64,000 nt of DNA from positions 1,061,443-1,125,442 of the forward strand of contig OY970181.1 of NCBI GenBank assembly GCA_963708045.1, written 5' to 3'. Source of the stretch: an uncultured bacterium (GTDB lineage Bacteria > Patescibacteriota > Patescibacteriia > CAIQCM01). Below are positions 4,084 through 9,805 of this stretch, piece by piece (positions within the stretch are counted from its first letter, which is position 1; every line of letters begins with the position of its first letter). The notes under the pieces were generated by a model that did no database searches, was not told the origin of the DNA, and saw only the letters and a list, made by a program, of their open reading frames with translations. The position numbers and the translations under genes were made by a program.

Positions 4084-5685
4084 TTAAGGACTAACTTGCT
4101 CCGCTTCTGGCGGAACGGTAACCGGCCGAACCGGCAAATCGGCGCTGATAATTTCCGGCTTGGTAACATTACTTAAGTCCAGTGGATATGATTCGGTTTT
4201 CCAATAGCCAGGGTGAGTAACTGTCACATAATATGTATTTTTCCCGACCAAAAAATAATATCGCCCGCGGCGGTCAGAAATTTGCGTTTCCACAAGTTTG
4301 TTATAAGGCAAAGAAAACAAGCGGACAACGGCGTGGGCGATCGGCTTGGATGTAACTTCGTCCGAAACCACGCCCCAGCGGCCGCGATTTTTTACTTTTG
4401 AAAGCCGCTTTAAAAATAAATAAAAAACCAGTTGTAACCCGAGAATCACCCCCATATAAATTCCCGGTTTAGCGGCAAAAGAAAAAGCCGCCAAACAAAA
4501 ACTTGAAAGCGCGACGATGTTCCCAATTTTGTTCTTTAAATATTTTTTAACCAGAACGACATCGCCGACTGCTTCCGCCGCCGCGTCAACGGGAATTGCC
4601 GGGCTAACCGCCGTTTGTTCGCTCGCGCCAAATTCCGAACCAAAATACAGCGCGCCAAAGTCAGGATCGCTTTCGGCGCCCGCCATATTTTTTGACGGAA
4701 AAGAAAACCCCGGCTTGGTAACTTCTAGGCGATATTTTCCTTGTGGCGCCAAAAACATAAAACGACCGCTCGTGTCAGTGACTTTTGTCGCAATAACGCG
4801 ATTGGTCGTGGCGTCAACTAAACGCACGATTGCGAGATCAACCGGCAATCTGGTTCCAGAATTAAACACCACGCCCCAAGCCGCTTGGCGGCGACGGCGG
4901 CGAAAAAATAACGCCGGCTGAGTAAAAAACAGATACAAATAAAATCCGTATTGCGCCGTTGGCACTGAGCTCGCAGCAACGGCGACAACCGCAACCGTGC
5001 TCACTGGCGCCGCCGCTACTTCGGCCGTTGTTTCCACAATCGGATTATCTAAAACAACGCGCTTCGTAAGAATAATGGCGTTTACCGCGGGCATAACCGC
5101 CGTACCAACGGAAACCGCCGCCTCTTGTGTCACTCTTTTTTGCGTCGCGGCGGCGACCGCAGGCGGCGGATCAGCAAAACCCGACGGTGTTTCTATTTGC
5201 GCGCCAGCTTTTTGTCCGGAAAAATCGGTTTCTAAATAAAAACTAACGCGATAATTTAGACACGGCGACGCGTTACAGGCTGTGCCGTCAGAATTTAATG
5301 ATTCGTAAAGATAGTCCGCACCAAACGGTCCGGGGTTTTTGGGAACGTTAGAAAGATACACTTCGTCCTGCGGTGAATCGGTAAAACCGGCGGACGTTAA
5401 ATAATGACTGCCCGTTCCACCAAGAACCAAACCACCATCACCTCTAACGCCATCGGTCGGATACCCACCTGTGTCGTTTACGGAATATTCCAAAGCCTTA
5501 TGGATTGTATCCAAATTTGCAATCCGCGCCACGTCGCGCGACTTAGCACGGACGCTTTCATAAGAAACCGTAGCAATCGTGCTCATCAGTCCAATGATGC
5601 TGATGACGGTTAAAAGCTCAACCAAGGTAAAACCGCGATGATGCTTAGGTTGTAAGTTGTTGGTTGTAAGTTGTTGGGAAAACAT
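4084..5685 (-). CDS. type IV pilin-like protein (prepilin N-terminal methylation motif) with internal TM helices and carboxypeptidase-regulatory-like beta domains
   Basis: N-terminus ...RGFTLVELLTVISIIGLMSTIATVSY is a class III signal/pseudopilin motif. Two GRFMFLAPQGKYRLEVTKPGFSFPS / GRYYFLVGKNTYYVTVTHPGYWKTESYP segments resemble CarboxypepD_reg folds. Confidence 0.65.
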   Translation of the reverse strand: MFSQQLTTNNLQPKHHRGFTLVELLTVISIIGLMSTIATVSYESVRAKSRDVARIANLDTIHKALEYSVNDTGGYPTDGVRGDGGLVLGGTGSHYLTSAGFTDSPQDEVYLSNVPKNPGPFGADYLYESLNSDGTACNASPCLNYRVSFYLETDFSGQKAGAQIETPSGFADPPPAVAAATQKRVTQEAAVSVGTAVMPAVNAIILTKRVVLDNPIVETTAEVAAAPVSTVAVVAVAASSVPTAQYGFYLYLFFTQPALFFRRRRRQAAWGVVFNSGTRLPVDLAIVRLVDATTNRVIATKVTDTSGRFMFLAPQGKYRLEVTKPGFSFPSKNMAGAESDPDFGALYFGSEFGASEQTAVSPAIPVDAAAEAVGDVVLVKKYLKNKIGNIVALSSFCLAAFSFAAKPGIYMGVILGLQLVFYLFLKRLSKVKNRGRWGVVSDEVTSKPIAHAVVRLFSLPYNKLVETQISDRRGRYYFLVGKNTYYVTVTHPGYWKTESYPLDLSNVTKPEIISADLPVRPVTVPPEAEQVSP

Positions 5686-5737
5686 TAATAAATTGTACTA
5701 CAAATATATCCTATTCCCTAGTCCATAATTTTTAACA

Positions 5738-5793: not shown

Positions 5794-6300
5794 TCAGGAA
5801 ACCAGAACCGGTCCAAGCGCCATTACTTCTTCAGCGTCTTTTTTAGTTATAACTTTTTTATCAGCCAATTTAACCGCCAGCAGATCAACTTTATCGTTGG
5901 TATTCATAAAACCATCGCGCATCTCTGACCGAAGCGAGCCGATCTCGGTTCTAACCGAAGAAATCTCAGAATGGAGTTCGTTACGAAGCCCGGATATCTC
6001 CGACTTAAGCTCAGTGCGTACAGCCGATATCTCCGACTTAAGTTCAAGACGAACCGAGGACAGTCTAGCATCGACCCCGGCAATATCATTCTTAAGCTCA
6101 GTGCGCAAGATATCAACCTTTTGATTAACATCAACAATATCTTTACCCACCTGATCAAATCCAGCCTTAACGATCGTCACCAAATCATCAATAGCCGCGG
6201 CATTTTCTTTAATGGCGACAGAGTTTTCTTTGATAGCCAAAGCGCTTTCTTTAACTAGAGCGGCCAATTCGTCAATTTTTTCGTTTGTTCTCTTTTCCAT
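5794..6300 (-). CDS. coiled-coil protein with tandem 11-residue repeats
   Basis: 168 aa. Repeats RLELKSEISAVRTELKSEISGLRNELHSEISSVRTEIGSLRSEM are mirrored by ~33-bp tandem DNA repeats at ~5985-6100. Confidence 0.5.
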   Translation of the reverse strand: MEKRTNEKIDELAALVKESALAIKENSVAIKENAAAIDDLVTIVKAGFDQVGKDIVDVNQKVDILRTELKNDIAGVDARLSSVRLELKSEISAVRTELKSEISGLRNELHSEISSVRTEIGSLRSEMRDGFMNTNDKVDLLAVKLADKKVITKKDAEEVMALGPVLVS

Positions 6301-6322: not shown

Positions 6323-7324
6323 TTAAGTCCTGTCAAAAGCCTCGTTGTTTAATATCATATTTTGCAAACTTTGTGTGTCCCCGTGGCTCAAAAGTCCCAG
6401 ATATGACTTGATTGTCGCTTTGCTCGGATGCTCGGCAATGCGCTTAAACATTCGCCGTTCAGTCGTCTTTCGCAAAACGCGATGATCGGAGAAATGCGTC
6501 CACCCCAAAAAATCAACGCCTGAGCCAAAGGTCTTGAGAATTATCTTGTCCGGATGCATCGTTAGCCGTAAATTGTTTTGGAGATAATCGGATACAATCG
6601 GCAAAATCGCCAGCAACTCATTTTTATACGGTGACAAGAAAACAAAATCATCAGCATAGCGAATGTAATGTGAAAATCGTAAATACTGTTTCACAAATAA
6701 ATCCAGTTCATTCAAATACACATTGGCAAAAAGTTGCGAAGTCAAATTTCCGAGCGGTATACCAACACCCGATCGTCCGGAATTAAAACTACCAACAATA
6801 TTAACGAGGAGCAAACAAATATCGTCATCAGGTATTCGTTCAAAAAGAAGTTTTAATAATATCGTCTGATTGACGCTCGCAAAGAACTTGCGAATGTCGC
6901 ACTTCAAAACCCAAACTGTGCGCGTATGATTTTTGCCAACTTTCAAAGCAAGATCGCGAAACCGGTTCAAGGCCGCGTGCGTGCCTTTGTCTATTCGGCA
7001 AGAAAAGGAATCCGCTACGAAAATTCTATCAAAGAATGGGTATAGTAAACGGTGTACGGCATGGTGCAAAAGGCGGTCGCGCACCGAGGCTTTATGAATC
7101 TGCCGCGGCTTGGGGTCGGAAATGCGAAAGGCGCGGTAGCCGCCATGACGATATTTATGCGTAGTCAAATCTTTGTGAAGTTGTAAAATATTATCCATCA
7201 GGTTATCGGAGAACTCTTGCACATCGGTCTTGCCTCGTTTTCCGGCGGCGAATTCTTCCCAAGCGGCACATAAATTTTCAAGTGATGTAACTTCATCAAA
7301 GCTATGGATCAAAATCTTTTTCAT
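6323..7324 (-). CDS. diversity-generating retroelement (DGR) reverse transcriptase
   Basis: 333 aa RT with YADDFV catalytic motif. DGR-specific motif 4 IPLGNLTSQLFANVYLNELD (I/LGxxxSQ replaces the QG of group II/retron RTs). A TR/VR pair lies immediately adjacent. Confidence 0.85.
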   Translation of the reverse strand: MKKILIHSFDEVTSLENLCAAWEEFAAGKRGKTDVQEFSDNLMDNILQLHKDLTTHKYRHGGYRAFRISDPKPRQIHKASVRDRLLHHAVHRLLYPFFDRIFVADSFSCRIDKGTHAALNRFRDLALKVGKNHTRTVWVLKCDIRKFFASVNQTILLKLLFERIPDDDICLLLVNIVGSFNSGRSGVGIPLGNLTSQLFANVYLNELDLFVKQYLRFSHYIRYADDFVFLSPYKNELLAILPIVSDYLQNNLRLTMHPDKIILKTFGSGVDFLGWTHFSDHRVLRKTTERRMFKRIAEHPSKATIKSYLGLLSHGDTQSLQNMILNNEAFDRT

Positions 7325-7333
7325 AATTCTAGT

Positions 7334-7697
7334 ATGTTACCCCCCCCCGACGGATTTCAAGGAAATTCCAATTTTGCGACGAGCGATAGACGCATACAAA
7401 CTTTGGCACAGCTTTCTTAATGCCATGCCACGAATGACAAAGTACACTTTGGGATCGCGAATTGACGGCCTTTTTGGCGACTTGATTGAAAACTTATCAG
7501 CTGCAGGATATGCGATAAAAGAAAACAAGATATCATTTCTCAATTCCGCAAGCGTAAACCTTGATCTAGTCAAATTATTTCTGCGTCTTGCTTGGGAAAT
7601 AAAAGCTCTTGACCATAAAAAATACGCCGCAGTCTCGGAACCAATAAACGACATTGGGCGAATGCTTGGTGGTTGGCGAAAACACCTTATTACTTAA
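7334..7697 (+). CDS. avd: Avd-like four-helix-bundle accessory protein (start uncertain; ATG at 7334 is out of frame unless the C9 tract at 7340-7348 is one C shorter)
   Basis: Region ...FKEIPILRRAIDAYKLWHSFLNAMPRMTKYTLGSRIDGLFGDLIENLSAAGYA...FLNSASVNLDLVKLFLRLAWEIKALDHKKYAAVSEPINDIGRMLGGWRK matches the four-helix-bundle (bAvd / 23S IVS protein) family pattern. Alternative in-frame start TTG ~7374. Confidence 0.55.
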
Positions 7698-7735
7698 CAC
7701 CCTTGAACGTTGTCAAGGGTGTTAACTGAAAAGAG

Positions 7736-7873
7736 TTGCTGACGGCGAGGAAGAACCAGTTCGCGTTCCACTGATTGCTGGGGTCGTCGTAGTTGAGGTT
7801 GAGGTTCCGTTCGCGATCGTTCTCGTTCAAGTACGCAACGTGGAGATGATCACCGAAGCGAGCGACCGAGCCG
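7736..7873 (-). repeat. DGR template repeat (TR), 138 bp
   Basis: Near-identical to VR at 8210-8347. All 11 mismatches are plus-strand T (= minus-strand A) in this copy versus C (10) or A (1) in VR. Noncoding copy, rich in AAC codons when read in target frame. Confidence 0.8.
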
Positions 7874-8127
7874 TCTGAATATGTTCAAAACCGTCCGCAC
7901 CACCACCCCTTGAATTCTCTTGGGGTTGAATTTTATACCGAGCCCTTGCTCGCTGATTTTGAACACCAAGTATTTTCAGTTTCGCACGACGATGATGCTC
8001 TAATCAGCGGCTTGCCGCTAGATTATTCTGACCCGTCGTTCGCGCGCAGATTCGGCCGCCTGAAACCTTAGTCGCAAGCAGATTTGCCTAATCCAATTAT
8101 AATTATACACCAAAAATAAAAATCACC

Positions 8128-8156
8128 CCGCACAACACGAATGTTGTGCGGGGCCG
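8128..8156 (-). terminator. hairpin/terminator downstream of DGR target gene
   Basis: ccccgcacaac-acgaat-gttgtgcgggg stem-loop followed on minus strand by TGATTTTTATTTTT, ~50 nt after target stop. Confidence 0.4.
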
Positions 8157-8205: not shown

Positions 8206-8865
8206 TTACTTGCTGACGGCGAGGAAGAACCAGTTCGCGTCCCACTGAATGCTGGGGTCGCCGTAGCTGAGGCTGAGGTCCCGCTCGCGATCGTCCCCGC
8301 TCAAGTACGCAACGTGGAGATGACCACCGAAGCGAGCGACCGAGCCGAGGGCAGCAATCAGATGCCTCCTTTGCTCATCTGGATACTTACTCGCAAAAGC
8401 GAGTAGTTCCTCGTAGAGCGCAGGGCGCAAACCAACTGCGTCCATAGCTTCAAGAATTTTCTTGGTCGTCATTTGACGGTCAATCCTGAAGTATTGGAAT
8501 ACTACGTCGCCAGCCGTCCGAACAATGCTCTTACATCGCTCAATTGGCTCGAACCGAGCCTTGGCGTAATCGGGGTTCACCCAATCAAACACCTTACTGA
8601 GTTCTTCGAACGACGGCTGAAGGTATTTCACGAGGGCTGTGAATACTTCAACTACCTTTTCGTTTACAGCCGCGAGTGCAGCCAGTGCCGCCGTAACCAT
8701 AACTTTGCCAAGAGCTGGTTTCTCGCCCACCGCCACAAATAGTTCTTCGGTCATACCTCCACCATTAAGCGAGGCCAGAAATGGACCCAATCCGCCGAGT
8801 TCTGTTTTGAATAGGTTTGCCATTTTAGCTACCCTACCCTTTCTTAACCGTCCCGGTACATTCAA
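8206..8865 (-). CDS. DGR variable (target) protein; VR encodes the C-terminal 46 residues
   Basis: 219 aa (alternative start MANLFK at ~8823 has a GGGTAGG-like RBS). C-terminus ...GGHLHVAYLSGDDRERDLSLSYGDPSIQWDANWFFLAVSK. Variable positions correspond to AAC/GAC/AAT codons of TR. Confidence 0.75.
   Translation of the reverse strand: MNVPGRLRKGRVAKMANLFKTELGGLGPFLASLNGGGMTEELFVAVGEKPALGKVMVTAALAALAAVNEKVVEVFTALVKYLQPSFEELSKVFDWVNPDYAKARFEPIERCKSIVRTAGDVVFQYFRIDRQMTTKKILEAMDAVGLRPALYEELLAFASKYPDEQRRHLIAALGSVARFGGHLHVAYLSGDDRERDLSLSYGDPSIQWDANWFFLAVSK
8210..8347 (-). repeat. DGR variable repeat (VR)
   Basis: 138 bp matching TR, lying at the 3' end of the target ORF (stop at 8206-8208). Substitutions N to S/D/G/I relative to the TR-encoded peptide. 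Confidence 0.8.
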
Positions 8866-9029
8866 ACAAACGCACCACGCGCTGGTTTAAATTTCCCTGA
8901 TTTAAAAGGACGCACTTAATTTCATCATTTTAGAGACAAAAACAAATGCGTACTTTTTAAGCTCTCAACAAATGAAGATACCACAAAACAACGATTTTGT
9001 CAAGATTTCGCTTTGATAAATGTATATAT

Positions 9030-9057
9030 TTGACAAAAATGTATAGTTTTGTATAAT
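9030..9057 (+). promoter_or_regulatory. sigma70-like promoter TTGACA-N16-TATAAT
   Basis: tTTGACAaaaatgtatagttttgTATAATttagttaaatATG. The -10 element ends ~10 nt before the ATG of the HTH-GHKL gene, so the mRNA is near-leaderless. Confidence 0.5.
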
Positions 9058-9067
9058 TTAGTTAAAT

Positions 9068-9805
9068 ATGAGTAGATTAGACAAAAAACTATATACTATT
9101 AGCGAGGCGGCCAAATATCTTGGCGTTTCAATGGTCACACTCCGTCGCTGGCACAAAGACGAGTCTTTTAAGGCGTCTTTTGTTTCCCCTGGGGGTCACC
9201 GATATTATTCCTTGGCCGATCTTGAAAAAAAGACTCGCGGTATTTTTCAAATTGCCCGCGAATGGGCCGCTTCGGAAACGCCATTTGAACAAGCAAGCGA
9301 ATTTTACGCATCAACGAGCGACCGTTTTAAAACAAGACAAGGAAGAATGGACACGGAAATGAACGCCGCGCCAAAACCGGAAAAAAATATTTCTTTGATA
9401 TCCGCGTCCGTTGGAGAAATCGGAAATAATTCTTTTGACCACAACCTCGGTAATTGGCCAGATATTCCCGGAGTATTTTTTGCTTATGATCTTGGTAAAC
9501 GAGTCATCGTCCTTGCCGACCGAGGTGTCGGAGTCTTGGAAACATTAAGACGGATTAGACCCGGATTAAAAGATCACAACAGTGCGCTACTTGCCGCATT
9601 TACGGAGATACTTACCGCTCGCGCGCCGGAACATCGCGGCAACGGATTAAAATTCGTTAAAGAAGCACTAACGATTGCCGGAGCAAATTTATCTTTTCAA
9701 TCCGGCAATGCTATTGCCGAAATAAAAGGATCAAAACCCGAGTTAATAATTAAAAACGCGGACTCGTTCATTCGCGGCTCTCTCGCATTAATTGAATATC
9801 AATAA
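9068..9805 (+). CDS. MerR-type HTH fused to GHKL (anti-sigma-factor-like Ser kinase/ATPase) domain
   Basis: N-terminus YTISEAAKYLGVSMVTLRRWHKD is a MerR-like HTH. C-terminal half carries N-box EIGNNSFDHN, G1 ADRGVGV and G2 HRGNGLKF. Paralogous to the 62159-62671 protein. Confidence 0.7.
   Translation: MSRLDKKLYTISEAAKYLGVSMVTLRRWHKDESFKASFVSPGGHRYYSLADLEKKTRGIFQIAREWAASETPFEQASEFYASTSDRFKTRQGRMDTEMNAAPKPEKNISLISASVGEIGNNSFDHNLGNWPDIPGVFFAYDLGKRVIVLADRGVGVLETLRRIRPGLKDHNSALLAAFTEILTARAPEHRGNGLKFVKEALTIAGANLSFQSGNAIAEIKGSKPELIIKNADSFIRGSLALIEYQ

Follow-up and report, generated by a model that had tools for sequence, protein, structure and literature searches.

A variable-length C-run in the 5' end of a divergent avd gene as a possible slippage switch of a CPR-type DGR

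Results and discussion

Organization of the DGR cassette

We studied a CPR-type DGR cassette of an uncultured member of the Patescibacteria, located in a 64-kb stretch of genomic DNA (from here on, the window). Its elements follow the order target/VR, TR, avd (on the opposite strand) and RT. As the earlier note on this DNA had stated, the reverse transcriptase (RT) gene of 333 aa (6323..7324, start ATG 7324-7322), the template repeat (TR, 7736..7873) and the target gene of 219 aa (8206..8865), which belongs to no Pfam family, all lie on the minus strand, and so does the variable repeat (VR, 8210..8347) at the 3' end of the target ORF. The RT matched Pfam RVT_1 (E 3e-18) and had more than 7,700 homologues at E<=1e-80, all of the CPR DGR family; those checked sit in cassettes bearing TR and VR, and in most relatives the N-terminus MKKILIH can be aligned from residue 1. 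TR and VR form a 138-nt repeat with 92% identity, and all 11 mismatches fall at TR adenines (10 A>G and 1 A>T, read on the minus strand). The locus therefore presents a DGR-lineage RT, an adenine-biased TR/VR pair, a VR at the target 3' end and an Avd-type protein (see below), four of the features by which a DGR is recognized.

Two hairpins were found in the cassette. A conserved stem-loop (7686..7733, inverted repeat I1, foldable on either strand) abuts the avd stop codon and, read on the minus strand, closely follows the 3' end of TR; its 13-bp stem has an MFE of about -22 kcal/mol on both strands and is preserved through compensatory changes in four related loci (L001, L003, L085 and L086). 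The other is a strong terminator-like hairpin on the minus strand (8125..8154; 13 bp, 8 of them GC, followed by a T-rich stretch), about 50 nt past the target stop and VR. A potential long-range inverted-repeat pairing between 7345-7362 and 7908-7925 (I9) is also present in the sequence.

The divergent position of avd had been taken as an unusual layout for a DGR, but it corresponds to the published architecture B3, TR-(avd)-RT with avd on the reverse strand, which is typical of CPR/Patescibacteria (Wu et al. 2018, PMC5758913); a CPR-restricted DGR clade 2 has been described as well (Roux et al. 2021, PMC8144416). We compared the cassette with 80 scored loci, the best-scoring 80 of more than 563 GTDB loci and hence a non-random sample of CPR DGRs. 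RT and avd were divergent in all 77 related loci having an RT hit, and TR followed the avd stop in 77 of the 80. Scans with DNA patterns for near relatives returned only an already known contig from metagenomes and none from genomes.

The Avd body is conserved

The plus-strand ORF in the frame of 7350..7697 (TDFKEIPILRRAIDAYKLW ... GGWRKHLIT; stop TAA 7695-7697) matched the Pfam family bAvd (PF22296) with 54.8 bits, over a cut-off of 40, and its AF2 model was a four-helix bundle with a pLDDT of 94.6. A sequence search of the PDB with the Avd alignment found no Avd, so that a fold search was needed; with Foldseek the model aligned both to 4DWL, the Avd of a Bordetella phage, and to the Avd chains of 8UB7 (TM 0.81-0.87). 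The reading of this ORF as a bAvd-like four-helix bundle was thus borne out, its likeness to 4DWL being seen at the level of fold and not in the PDB sequence search.

The dN/dS of the Avd body relative to its relatives was 0.03-0.08, which indicates strong purifying selection. The value was 0.03 even between two lineages in which the body is out of frame with its start (see below), with dS saturated at 2.5. In all the loci the body was recovered intact, as a single tblastn segment.

A C9 tract separates the conserved avd start from the Avd body

Position 7334 had been considered the only ATG upstream of helix 1. We found another one in the same frame at 7304, and its product, MDQNLFHNSSMLPPP, begins in the same way as the closest homologues (MEQNIFHNTSMLPPPP...). 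By this comparison ATG 7304 is the predicted conserved start of avd. The segment that it opens (MDQNLFHNSSML, 7304..7339, plus strand) corresponds to homologue N-termini of the forms MEQNIFHNTSML.. and MxQLNFH.. The avd and RT starts overlap head-to-head by 21 nt: ATG 7304-7306 is antisense to codon 7 of RT and the RT ATG to codon 7 of avd, both of which encode His. An ATG at the RT start minus 20 was present in more than 30 related loci. A longer ORF opening at TTG 7230 (155 aa) was discarded as the avd gene; its first 48 aa result from translating, in antisense, the region that encodes the conserved N-terminus of RT, and no such N-terminus occurred in any of the avd homologues compared.

Twelve codons after ATG 7304 there is a simple-sequence repeat of nine C (7340..7348, plus strand), which would encode Pro-Pro-Pro. 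With C9 the Avd body is in frame +1 relative to ATG 7304 and ATG 7334, and translation from 7304 yields a product of 38 aa (MDQNLFHNSSMLPPPDGFQGNSNFATSDRRIQTLAQLS, 7304..7420) that ends at the stop codon 7418-7420. Either C8 or C11 would bring the body in frame, C8 giving MLPPPTDFKE... from ATG 7334. The position of the tract, the one-nucleotide offset between ATG 7334 and the FKEIPIL... frame, and the effect of C8 all agree with the earlier note, to which C11 can be added. The tract is the sole C/G run of at least 8 in the 64-kb window and is, for this reason, not attributable to chance.

A repeat occupies the same site in most related loci

In 67 of the 80 loci a repeat was found between the conserved start and helix 1: C8 in 8 loci, C9 in 19, C10 in 22, C11 in 11, C12 in 3, C13 in 1 and (GA)n in 3. 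Across 687 kb of related loci, 64 of the 74 C/G runs of at least 8 were at the avd site, always with C on the avd sense strand. The sequence type of the repeat changes between lineages, and the site stays constant: (GA)7-18 was present in L041, L049 and L060, (AC)9/12 in L110-L113 and G8 in L100-L102. These substitutes encode ER, TH and G repeats, which rules out poly-proline as the selected feature.

Relative to the upstream ATG, the Avd body was in frame in 14 of the 67 repeat loci, at +1 in 28 and at +2 in 25. The 13 loci lacking the repeat were in frame in 12 cases (13 if the nearest ATG of L076 is used), a clear difference from the repeat loci (Fisher p = 1.7e-6). Four of these 13 presented instead a repeat inside RT, at about residue 184-192 ((GA)13 in L028, (GA)15 in L074, G10 in L071 and G9 in L076), and in three of the four the reading frame of RT is broken; no repeat was present there in any of the 67 loci with the avd repeat. 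Adenine-biased TR/VR pairs accompanied in-frame (ON) and out-of-frame (OFF) alleles alike.

The length of the tract differs among close relatives of the window: L085 has C9 and L086 C10, both OFF, L001 and L002 have C11 and are ON, and L003 is ON with C9 and a flank shorter by 1 nt. Differences were also found at the level of strains, behind identical RT proteins. P0094 was associated with C11 out of frame (L103 and L106) and with C10 in frame (L104 and L105), the upstream 600 nt of L103 and L104 being identical except for the single base of the C-run, and P0097 was associated with (AC)9 and (AC)12. The C10/C11 pair could come from disagreement between assemblers on the same or related reads. 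The consensus length can also be stable, since one Yanofskybacteria strain had C9 in 10 of 10 assemblies and one Harrisonbacteria strain had C8 in 3 of 3.

The tract thus resembles a contingency locus in several respects. It lies in the 5' coding region and has a length prone to slippage (G/C runs of at least 7-8), and among the relatives its length changes the frame of an otherwise intact ORF. It also appears to be kept by selection and not by codon usage: the C-run persists although synonymous sites are saturated, 64 of the 74 runs are at this one site, and other repeats replace it.

A putative switch on Avd and its alternatives

The comparative data point to a conserved slippage switch on Avd, and hence on DGR activity, which in the window would be in the OFF state; on sequence comparison we give this reading modest confidence as the probable one. 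Translation of avd would start at ATG 7304, head-to-head with the RT start, and cross a hypermutable C-run 12 codons in, where gain or loss of C would decide in which frame the ribosome enters the four-helix Avd body. Slipped-strand mispairing at replication would be the principal route, to which RNA-polymerase slippage on the same run possibly adds. The C9 allele of the window (+1) would return to ON by loss of one C or gain of two. Avd is an obligatory partner of the DGR reverse transcriptase, so the C-run would gate mutagenic retrohoming. Switching would presumably be reversible and frequent, OFF alleles would yield little or no functional Avd, and DGR activity would be expected to follow the state of the switch.

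Three explanations had been offered in the earlier note for the frame break, namely a homopolymer error, a switch and a non-ATG start, and the comparison favors the switch, makes an error unlikely and leaves the third a possibility in the window. Homopolymers are the main class of error in long-read assemblies, the contig of the window is a single 1.19-Mb piece, and two Rifle assemblies (L026 and L058) have N runs beside the tract, all of which would fit a true run of C8 or C11 in an ordinary intact avd. Yet the Logan assembly of ERR12035931 repeats the 50-nt spacing from the RT start to the TTG at 7374 and the 107-aa call, L085, from a different organism (SRR22388041), carries the identical out-of-frame C9+GACGGAT, and the frame is broken at this very site in 53 of the 67 loci, which come from many studies and assemblers. 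Variable slippery repeats at the same spot in most relatives argue for a built-in switch rather than an error, which we regard as very improbable. Least probable of all is that avd is a pseudogene of a dying DGR: its frame is indeed broken relative to the conserved start, but the breaks are confined to the repeat, the body is constrained and in one piece in all loci (see above), RT is intact, and every TR/VR mismatch is at an adenine. Nor is there much to recommend the idea that the run acts from the opposite strand, as a G-run upstream of RT that tunes RT expression in the manner of a promoter spacer or a 5'-UTR element, with an incidental effect on the avd frame. On the RT strand of the window subclade the run does have TTGAAA on one side and a -10-like hexamer on the other, and this 33-nt stretch is identical in the window and L085 despite saturated synonymous sites elsewhere. 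However, the run has such hexamers on both sides in only 8 of 66 loci (3.2 +/- 1.8 in shuffles), and five of these 8 belong to the window subclade, which rules out a -35/-10 spacer for RT as a general function; the distance from the run to the RT start varies from 3 to 44 nt, which likewise rules out a Shine-Dalgarno for RT. The (GA)n, (AC)n and poly-G variants place no G-run on the RT strand, and the repeats internal to RT would be left unexplained, so that we consider this role highly unlikely.

Two further explanations seem to us unlikely but less so. Avd may be made from TTG 7374 as a protein of 107 aa, the C-run and upstream ATGs being a leader or short uORF and the frame break harmless. 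An SD-like AAGGAA (7359-7364) precedes TTG 7374-7376 by 9-10 nt (candidate start region 7359..7376, plus strand), the public annotation P0001 starts there, and the shorter protein would still cover the Pfam bAvd profile except for about 3 positions. The combination AAGGAR+TTG occurs in all three out-of-frame members among the close relatives (window, L085 and L086) and in neither in-frame one, and in the Yanofskybacteria strain a plain ATG stands at the corresponding place, right after the run. Some OFF alleles may, on these grounds, still make Avd internally. The TTG proposed earlier is a candidate for the window but not a general solution, since 20 of the 53 out-of-frame loci have no ATG, GTG or TTG between the repeat and helix 1; start codons are no more available in OFF (33/53) than in ON loci (10/14), and an SD-like motif was found in only 5 OFF loci. 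The repeat-less loci keep the upstream ATG in frame (12-13 of 13), which implies that the N-terminal extension is normally translated, and an internal start does not explain why a repeat is conserved whatever its sequence. Recoding at the RNA level, by polymerase slippage or ribosomal frameshift on CCC-C, would in turn make the repeat an attenuator, not an on/off switch, that allows a constant small in-frame fraction at any length of the DNA run, which we also judge improbable. RNA polymerases slip on runs of about the length of the RNA:DNA hybrid, comparable to the 8-13 seen here, and CCC-C is a +1-prone ribosomal sequence. The stable consensus length in the 10 and 3 assemblies of two strains is consistent with recoding, as is the scarcity of in-frame alleles (14/67 against an expected 1/3, binomial p = 0.018). 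Programmed ribosomal frameshifting takes one fixed direction across homologues, however, and the parity of +1 and +2 offsets (28 and 25) argues against a directional frameshift. Transcriptional slippage agrees with the length of the C-runs but not with the dinucleotide variants, which certain lineages have in place of the homopolymer; both (GA)n and (AC)n are classic substrates of DNA slippage and are not known to serve as recoding sites. Length differences at the DNA level within strains also speak against recoding.

Extended to the whole CPR-wide DGR clade, the slippage switch would be heritable and reversible, an SSR in the avd 5' end, or in some lineages in a loop of the RT, toggling targeted hypermutation, with most populations OFF and only sub-populations diversifying the target. 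We hold this wider version tentatively, as a serious possibility slightly short of probable. If true, a hypermutator would here be under the control of a contingency locus. Little is known of how DGRs are controlled in nature, and a conserved repeat on which an intact avd or RT depends would represent a concrete mechanism, readable from sequence, that operates in the largest cellular DGR clade. In most of these genomes avd is shortened or overlooked by gene callers. Metagenomic reads could directly reveal whether a DGR is ON or OFF, and this state could be correlated with VR diversity in the same sample.

Comparison with known systems

The cassette shares gene order, orientation and a Patescibacteria host range with architecture B3 and DGR clade 2. 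Neither PMC5758913 nor PMC8144416 describes the 21-nt head-to-head overlap of the two starts or a repeat in the 5' end of avd, and neither mentions a homopolymer or frameshift in this gene. A full-text literature search that did not cover the principal paper on CPR DGRs (Paul et al. 2017, Nat Microbiol) found no report linking DGRs with homopolymers, SSRs or slippage in avd or RT.

The DGR of Bordetella phage BPP-1 (mtd-avd-TR-brt) has an Avd of similar fold (TM 0.81-0.87 with 4DWL and 8UB7) at about 20% identity, and the two systems are alike in having all mismatches at TR adenines and VR at the target 3' end. The avd of BPP-1 lacks a repeat and points in the same direction as TR and brt, whereas the one studied here is divergent, overlaps the RT start and depends on the C-run for its frame; unlike in BPP-1, RNA 3' of TR would be antisense to avd.

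The repeat itself is closest to the poly-G/C contingency loci of Campylobacter, Neisseria and Haemophilus (PMC4965091, PMC5084427), where, too, 8-13 G or C stand in a row early in the coding region, ON and OFF alleles differ by +/-1 nt, the ORF is intact apart from that, and the tract has been retained in the face of codon drift. The genes under such control are mostly those for surface structures or restriction-modification enzymes of host-adapted pathogens, and the gene concerned here is a predicted component of a targeted hypermutation machine in CPR. Phasevarion methyltransferases and repeat-switched mutator alleles of mismatch repair are cases in which a repeat switches an enzyme that alters many phenotypes or the supply of mutations. 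The putative avd switch would follow the same two-tier logic, its effect being a hypermutation confined to one target gene.

Organization of the DGR locus

The plus-strand ORF ending at the stop codon 7695-7697 is Avd, in agreement with the earlier note, which had recognized an Avd-like four-helix bundle. It scored 54.8 bits against Pfam bAvd (PF22296, cut-off 40), and its AlphaFold model (32 homologues as input, pLDDT 94.6) was a four-helix bundle that matched Avd of Bordetella phage (4DWL) and the Avd chains in the 8UB7 structure of a DGR ribonucleoprotein with TM scores of 0.81-0.87; a PDB search by sequence alone did not recover 4DWL or 8UB7 for the window Avd. The remaining parts are located on the minus strand, opposite avd, as had also been described for RT, TR and target: the RT (7324..6323, Pfam RVT_1), the TR (7873..7736), the VR (8347..8210) and the target ORF (8865..8206). 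All 11 mismatches between TR and VR within the repeat correspond to TR adenines.

Several other elements were seen around these genes. A 13-bp stem-loop (7686-7733) includes the stop codon of avd and, on the opposite strand, closely follows the 3' end of the TR; it is kept in the related loci L001, L003, L085 and L086 by compensatory changes (ACACCC/GGGTGT vs GCGCCC/GGGCGC) and could be a bidirectional terminator or a DGR RNA element after the TR. An 18-nt inverted repeat, 78% complementary, joins 7345-7362 with 7908-7925, about 35 nt upstream of the TR (minus strand). Chance or long-range pairing in a TR-RT transcript could account for it. Immediately downstream of the RT are two minus-strand genes: 5794-6300, for a 168-aa coiled-coil protein with internal direct repeats of 33-87 nt, and 4084-5685, whose 533-aa product combines CarboxypepD_reg domains with an N-terminal methylation motif like that of type IV pilins. 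The region 9020-9110, adjoining the upstream region of the target, holds a perfect sigma-70 consensus (TTGACA-16-TATAAT, 12/12) with nested inverted repeats and precedes a MerR/HTH-family gene (9068-9805).

A search of one genome per GTDB species yielded at least 563 relatives of the window Avd, nearly all labelled Patescibacteria/CPR; the loci analysed are the best 80 of these by score, not a random sample. In all 77 loci with an RT match the RT was upstream of avd on the opposite strand, and in about 74 of them immediately adjacent, with the N-termini facing. A TR-like copy started 0-40 nt past the avd stop in 77 of 80 loci with enough downstream sequence, with most of its mismatches at positions that read T on the avd strand and A on the RT strand, and the VR followed about 450-500 nt beyond. 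In L051 the RT lies 1.6 kb from avd while an N-terminal RT fragment is still beside it, with C11 at both places (3349 and 4982), and L084 carries a 360-bp exact repeat (5327-5686 / 8998-9357) and a second C11 (8642). In both loci this arrangement points to duplications or insertions where RT and avd meet.

Start of avd and frame break at the C-run

The sequence order in the window is CAT AATTCTAGT ATG TTA CCCCCCCCC GACGGATTTCAAGGAAATTCCAATTTTG, and past a plus-strand run of nine C (C9, 7340-7348) the ORF continues as TDFKEIPILRRAIDAYKLW up to the stop. No other C/G run in the 64-kb window reaches a length of 8. C9 does set ATG 7334 one nucleotide out of frame with the Avd body (from 7350 to the stop), as the earlier note had read it. 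That ATG, however, is not the only one upstream: ATG 7304 gives MDQNLFHNSSMLPPP, matching the N-termini of the closest homologues, MEQNIFHNTSMLPPPPTDFKQIPIL (protein P0002) and MSPPPDDFKSIPIL (P0003), and was missed because it shares the frame of ATG 7334. Many more distant Avd homologues start MxQ(L/N)xFH... followed by a proline-rich stretch, and more than 30 related loci have an ATG at the identical position relative to the RT start. By these comparisons ATG 7304 is the conserved avd start. ATG 7304-7306 is antisense to RT codon 7 (His) and the RT ATG (7324-7322) is antisense to avd codon 7 (His), so the two genes overlap head-to-head by 21 nt (7304-7324). Read from 7304, the C9 allele leaves the Avd frame and ends after 38 residues at a stop codon at 7418-7420; eight C would connect this ATG to the Avd body, as the earlier note had said for ATG 7334, and so would eleven.

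Conservation and polymorphism of the repeat

A repeat was present between the upstream ATG and helix 1 in 67 of 80 scorable loci: C8 in 8, C9 in 19, C10 in 22, C11 in 11, C12 in three, C13 in one and (GA)n in three, namely (GA)11, (GA)7 and (GA)18 in L041, L049 and L060, respectively. Over 687 kb of related loci, 64 of the 74 C/G runs of 8 or more were at this site, always with C on the avd sense strand. The Avd body was in frame with the upstream ATG in 14 repeat loci, +1 in 28 and +2 in 25, in-frame alleles being rarer than one third (binomial p = 0.018), vs 12 of 13 repeat-less loci in frame (13/13 with the nearest ATG in L076; Fisher's exact p = 1.7e-6); in a few loci, chiefly the (GA)n ones, it is ambiguous which upstream ATG should be taken. 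Frame breaks were limited to the repeat, and the Avd body was one unbroken tblastn segment in every locus. The strain with RT P0089 has G8 right after the ATG. The repeat sequence itself is not the conserved feature, and the (GA)n, (AC)n and poly-G variants encode ER, TH and G repeats, not prolines.

In four of the loci lacking the avd repeat, the RT ORF itself contained one, each time ahead of the GIPLGN motif at RT residues ~184-192: in RT sense, (GA)13 in L028 (510-535), (GA)15 in L074 (4398-4427) and G10 in L071 (651-660), all with a broken RT frame, and G9 in L076 (4426-4434), with the frame intact. None of the 67 avd-repeat loci had a repeat at these RT residues. A second homopolymer carries a frameshift in the RT of L033 (~4518-4560): it is T7, and T6 would bring back the conserved CDIKKFFASINQ motif. 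In L077 a stretch some 2 kb away from the DGR (7335-7510) contains runs of G13, A21, C32, C21 and C28; it resembles either a low-complexity assembly artefact or an extreme repeat region.

Run length varied among close relatives of the window, where C9 is followed by GACGGAT (out of frame, +1). L085 (SRR22388041) is in the identical state and L086 (SRR33586837) has C10 (out of frame, +2); L001 and L002 (JGI 3300031711 and SRR9009750) are in frame with C11, and L003 (ERZ27247850) is in frame with C9 and a flank 1 nt shorter (GACGAT). Variation also occurred under one identical RT protein, P0094: C11, out of frame, in L103 and L106 (JGI 3300039445, 3300039478), and C10, in frame and reading MTQLTFHINSSDTVPPPRRNLTILQKLVGVYKLW, in L104 and L105 (ERZ923673, ERZ27262750), although these contigs may stem from overlapping read sets. 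L103 and L104 were 100% identical over the RT and downstream, and their upstream 600 nt differed by that single C only. Of four assemblies of the strain with RT P0097, three had (AC)9 and one had (AC)12. Consensus run length can also be stable, as in a Yanofskybacteria strain (C9 in 10/10 assemblies) and a Harrisonbacteria strain (C8 in 3/3). Runs of N abut the C-run in two Rifle groundwater assemblies, L026 (~4978-4992) and L058 (~4970-4986), suggesting that assemblers have trouble at the tract and that assembly broke or was scaffolded there.

When the out-of-frame alleles of the window and L085 were compared, dN of the Avd body was 0.081 and dS 2.48 (saturated), a ratio of 0.03; other pairs gave 0.05-0.08. 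Such low ratios show that the Avd body is functional even where a lineage has an out-of-frame consensus allele. The C-run persists despite complete turnover of synonymous sites.

Alternative explanations

Pseudogenisation of avd was rejected in view of the confinement of breaks to the repeat, the intact body and the purifying selection on it (dN/dS 0.03-0.08). A sequencing error private to the window is unlikely because a Logan assembly of ERR12035931 agrees with the window both in its 107-aa avd call and in the 50-nt distance from this call to the RT start. Directional ribosomal frameshifting at the run is at odds with +1 and +2 classes of equal size (28 vs 25). RNA-polymerase slippage is consistent with homopolymers and inconsistent with the dinucleotide variants, and may still contribute.

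The non-ATG start near 7374 suggested in the earlier note is credible for the window genome: TTG 7374 has AAGGAA 9-10 nt upstream, the AAGGAR+TTG combination occurs in three out-of-frame members (window, L085, L086) and is absent from the two in-frame close relatives, and in the Yanofskybacteria strain a plain ATG occupies the equivalent position. As a general answer it fails, since 20 of 53 out-of-frame loci have no ATG, GTG or TTG before helix 1, start codons are no more available there than in in-frame loci, and an SD-like motif occurs in only five out-of-frame loci. An action of the run on the RT strand, as promoter spacer or SD, was rejected as a general explanation. In the window subclade TTGAAA and -10-like CATACT/TAACAT flank the run on that strand (7331-7362, minus), and the 33 nt around it are identical between the window and L085, against saturation of synonymous sites elsewhere. 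In this subclade an RT promoter might also be tuned by run length; the pattern was not seen clade-wide.

Proposed mechanism and relation to known systems

We propose that avd translation would start at 7304 and have to cross a slippage-prone repeat, whose length would be altered by replication slippage so that the Avd body is connected or disconnected. Because Avd is an obligatory partner of the DGR RT (Handa et al. 2018, PMC6182149; structures 8UB7), the repeat state would gate mutagenic retrohoming. The window allele would be OFF (+1), possibly leaky via TTG 7374. We infer that switching is reversible, and likewise its rate; OFF alleles would lose Avd, and repeat state would be expected to affect VR diversification. 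If true, the repeat would be a physical basis for alternating DGR activity.

Full-text literature searches, with Paul et al. 2017 outside their scope, returned no paper that ties DGRs to a homopolymer, a repeat or slippage in avd or RT, and the relevant passages in Wu 2018, Roux 2021 and a 2024 survey make no mention of such a feature in these genes. DGRs, architecture B3 and repeat-based phase variation are each already known. The divergent avd, which the earlier note had taken for an unusual layout, is the norm for the clade: Wu et al. 2018 (PMC5758913) define B3 as 'TR-(avd)-RT', parentheses meaning reverse strand, and give it as 90% of their CPR set, and Roux et al. 2021 (PMC8144416) place one DGR clade exclusively in Patescibacteria. 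With B3 standard in CPR and all 77 RT-bearing loci alike, the window layout counts as unusual only against the Bordetella prototype DGR.
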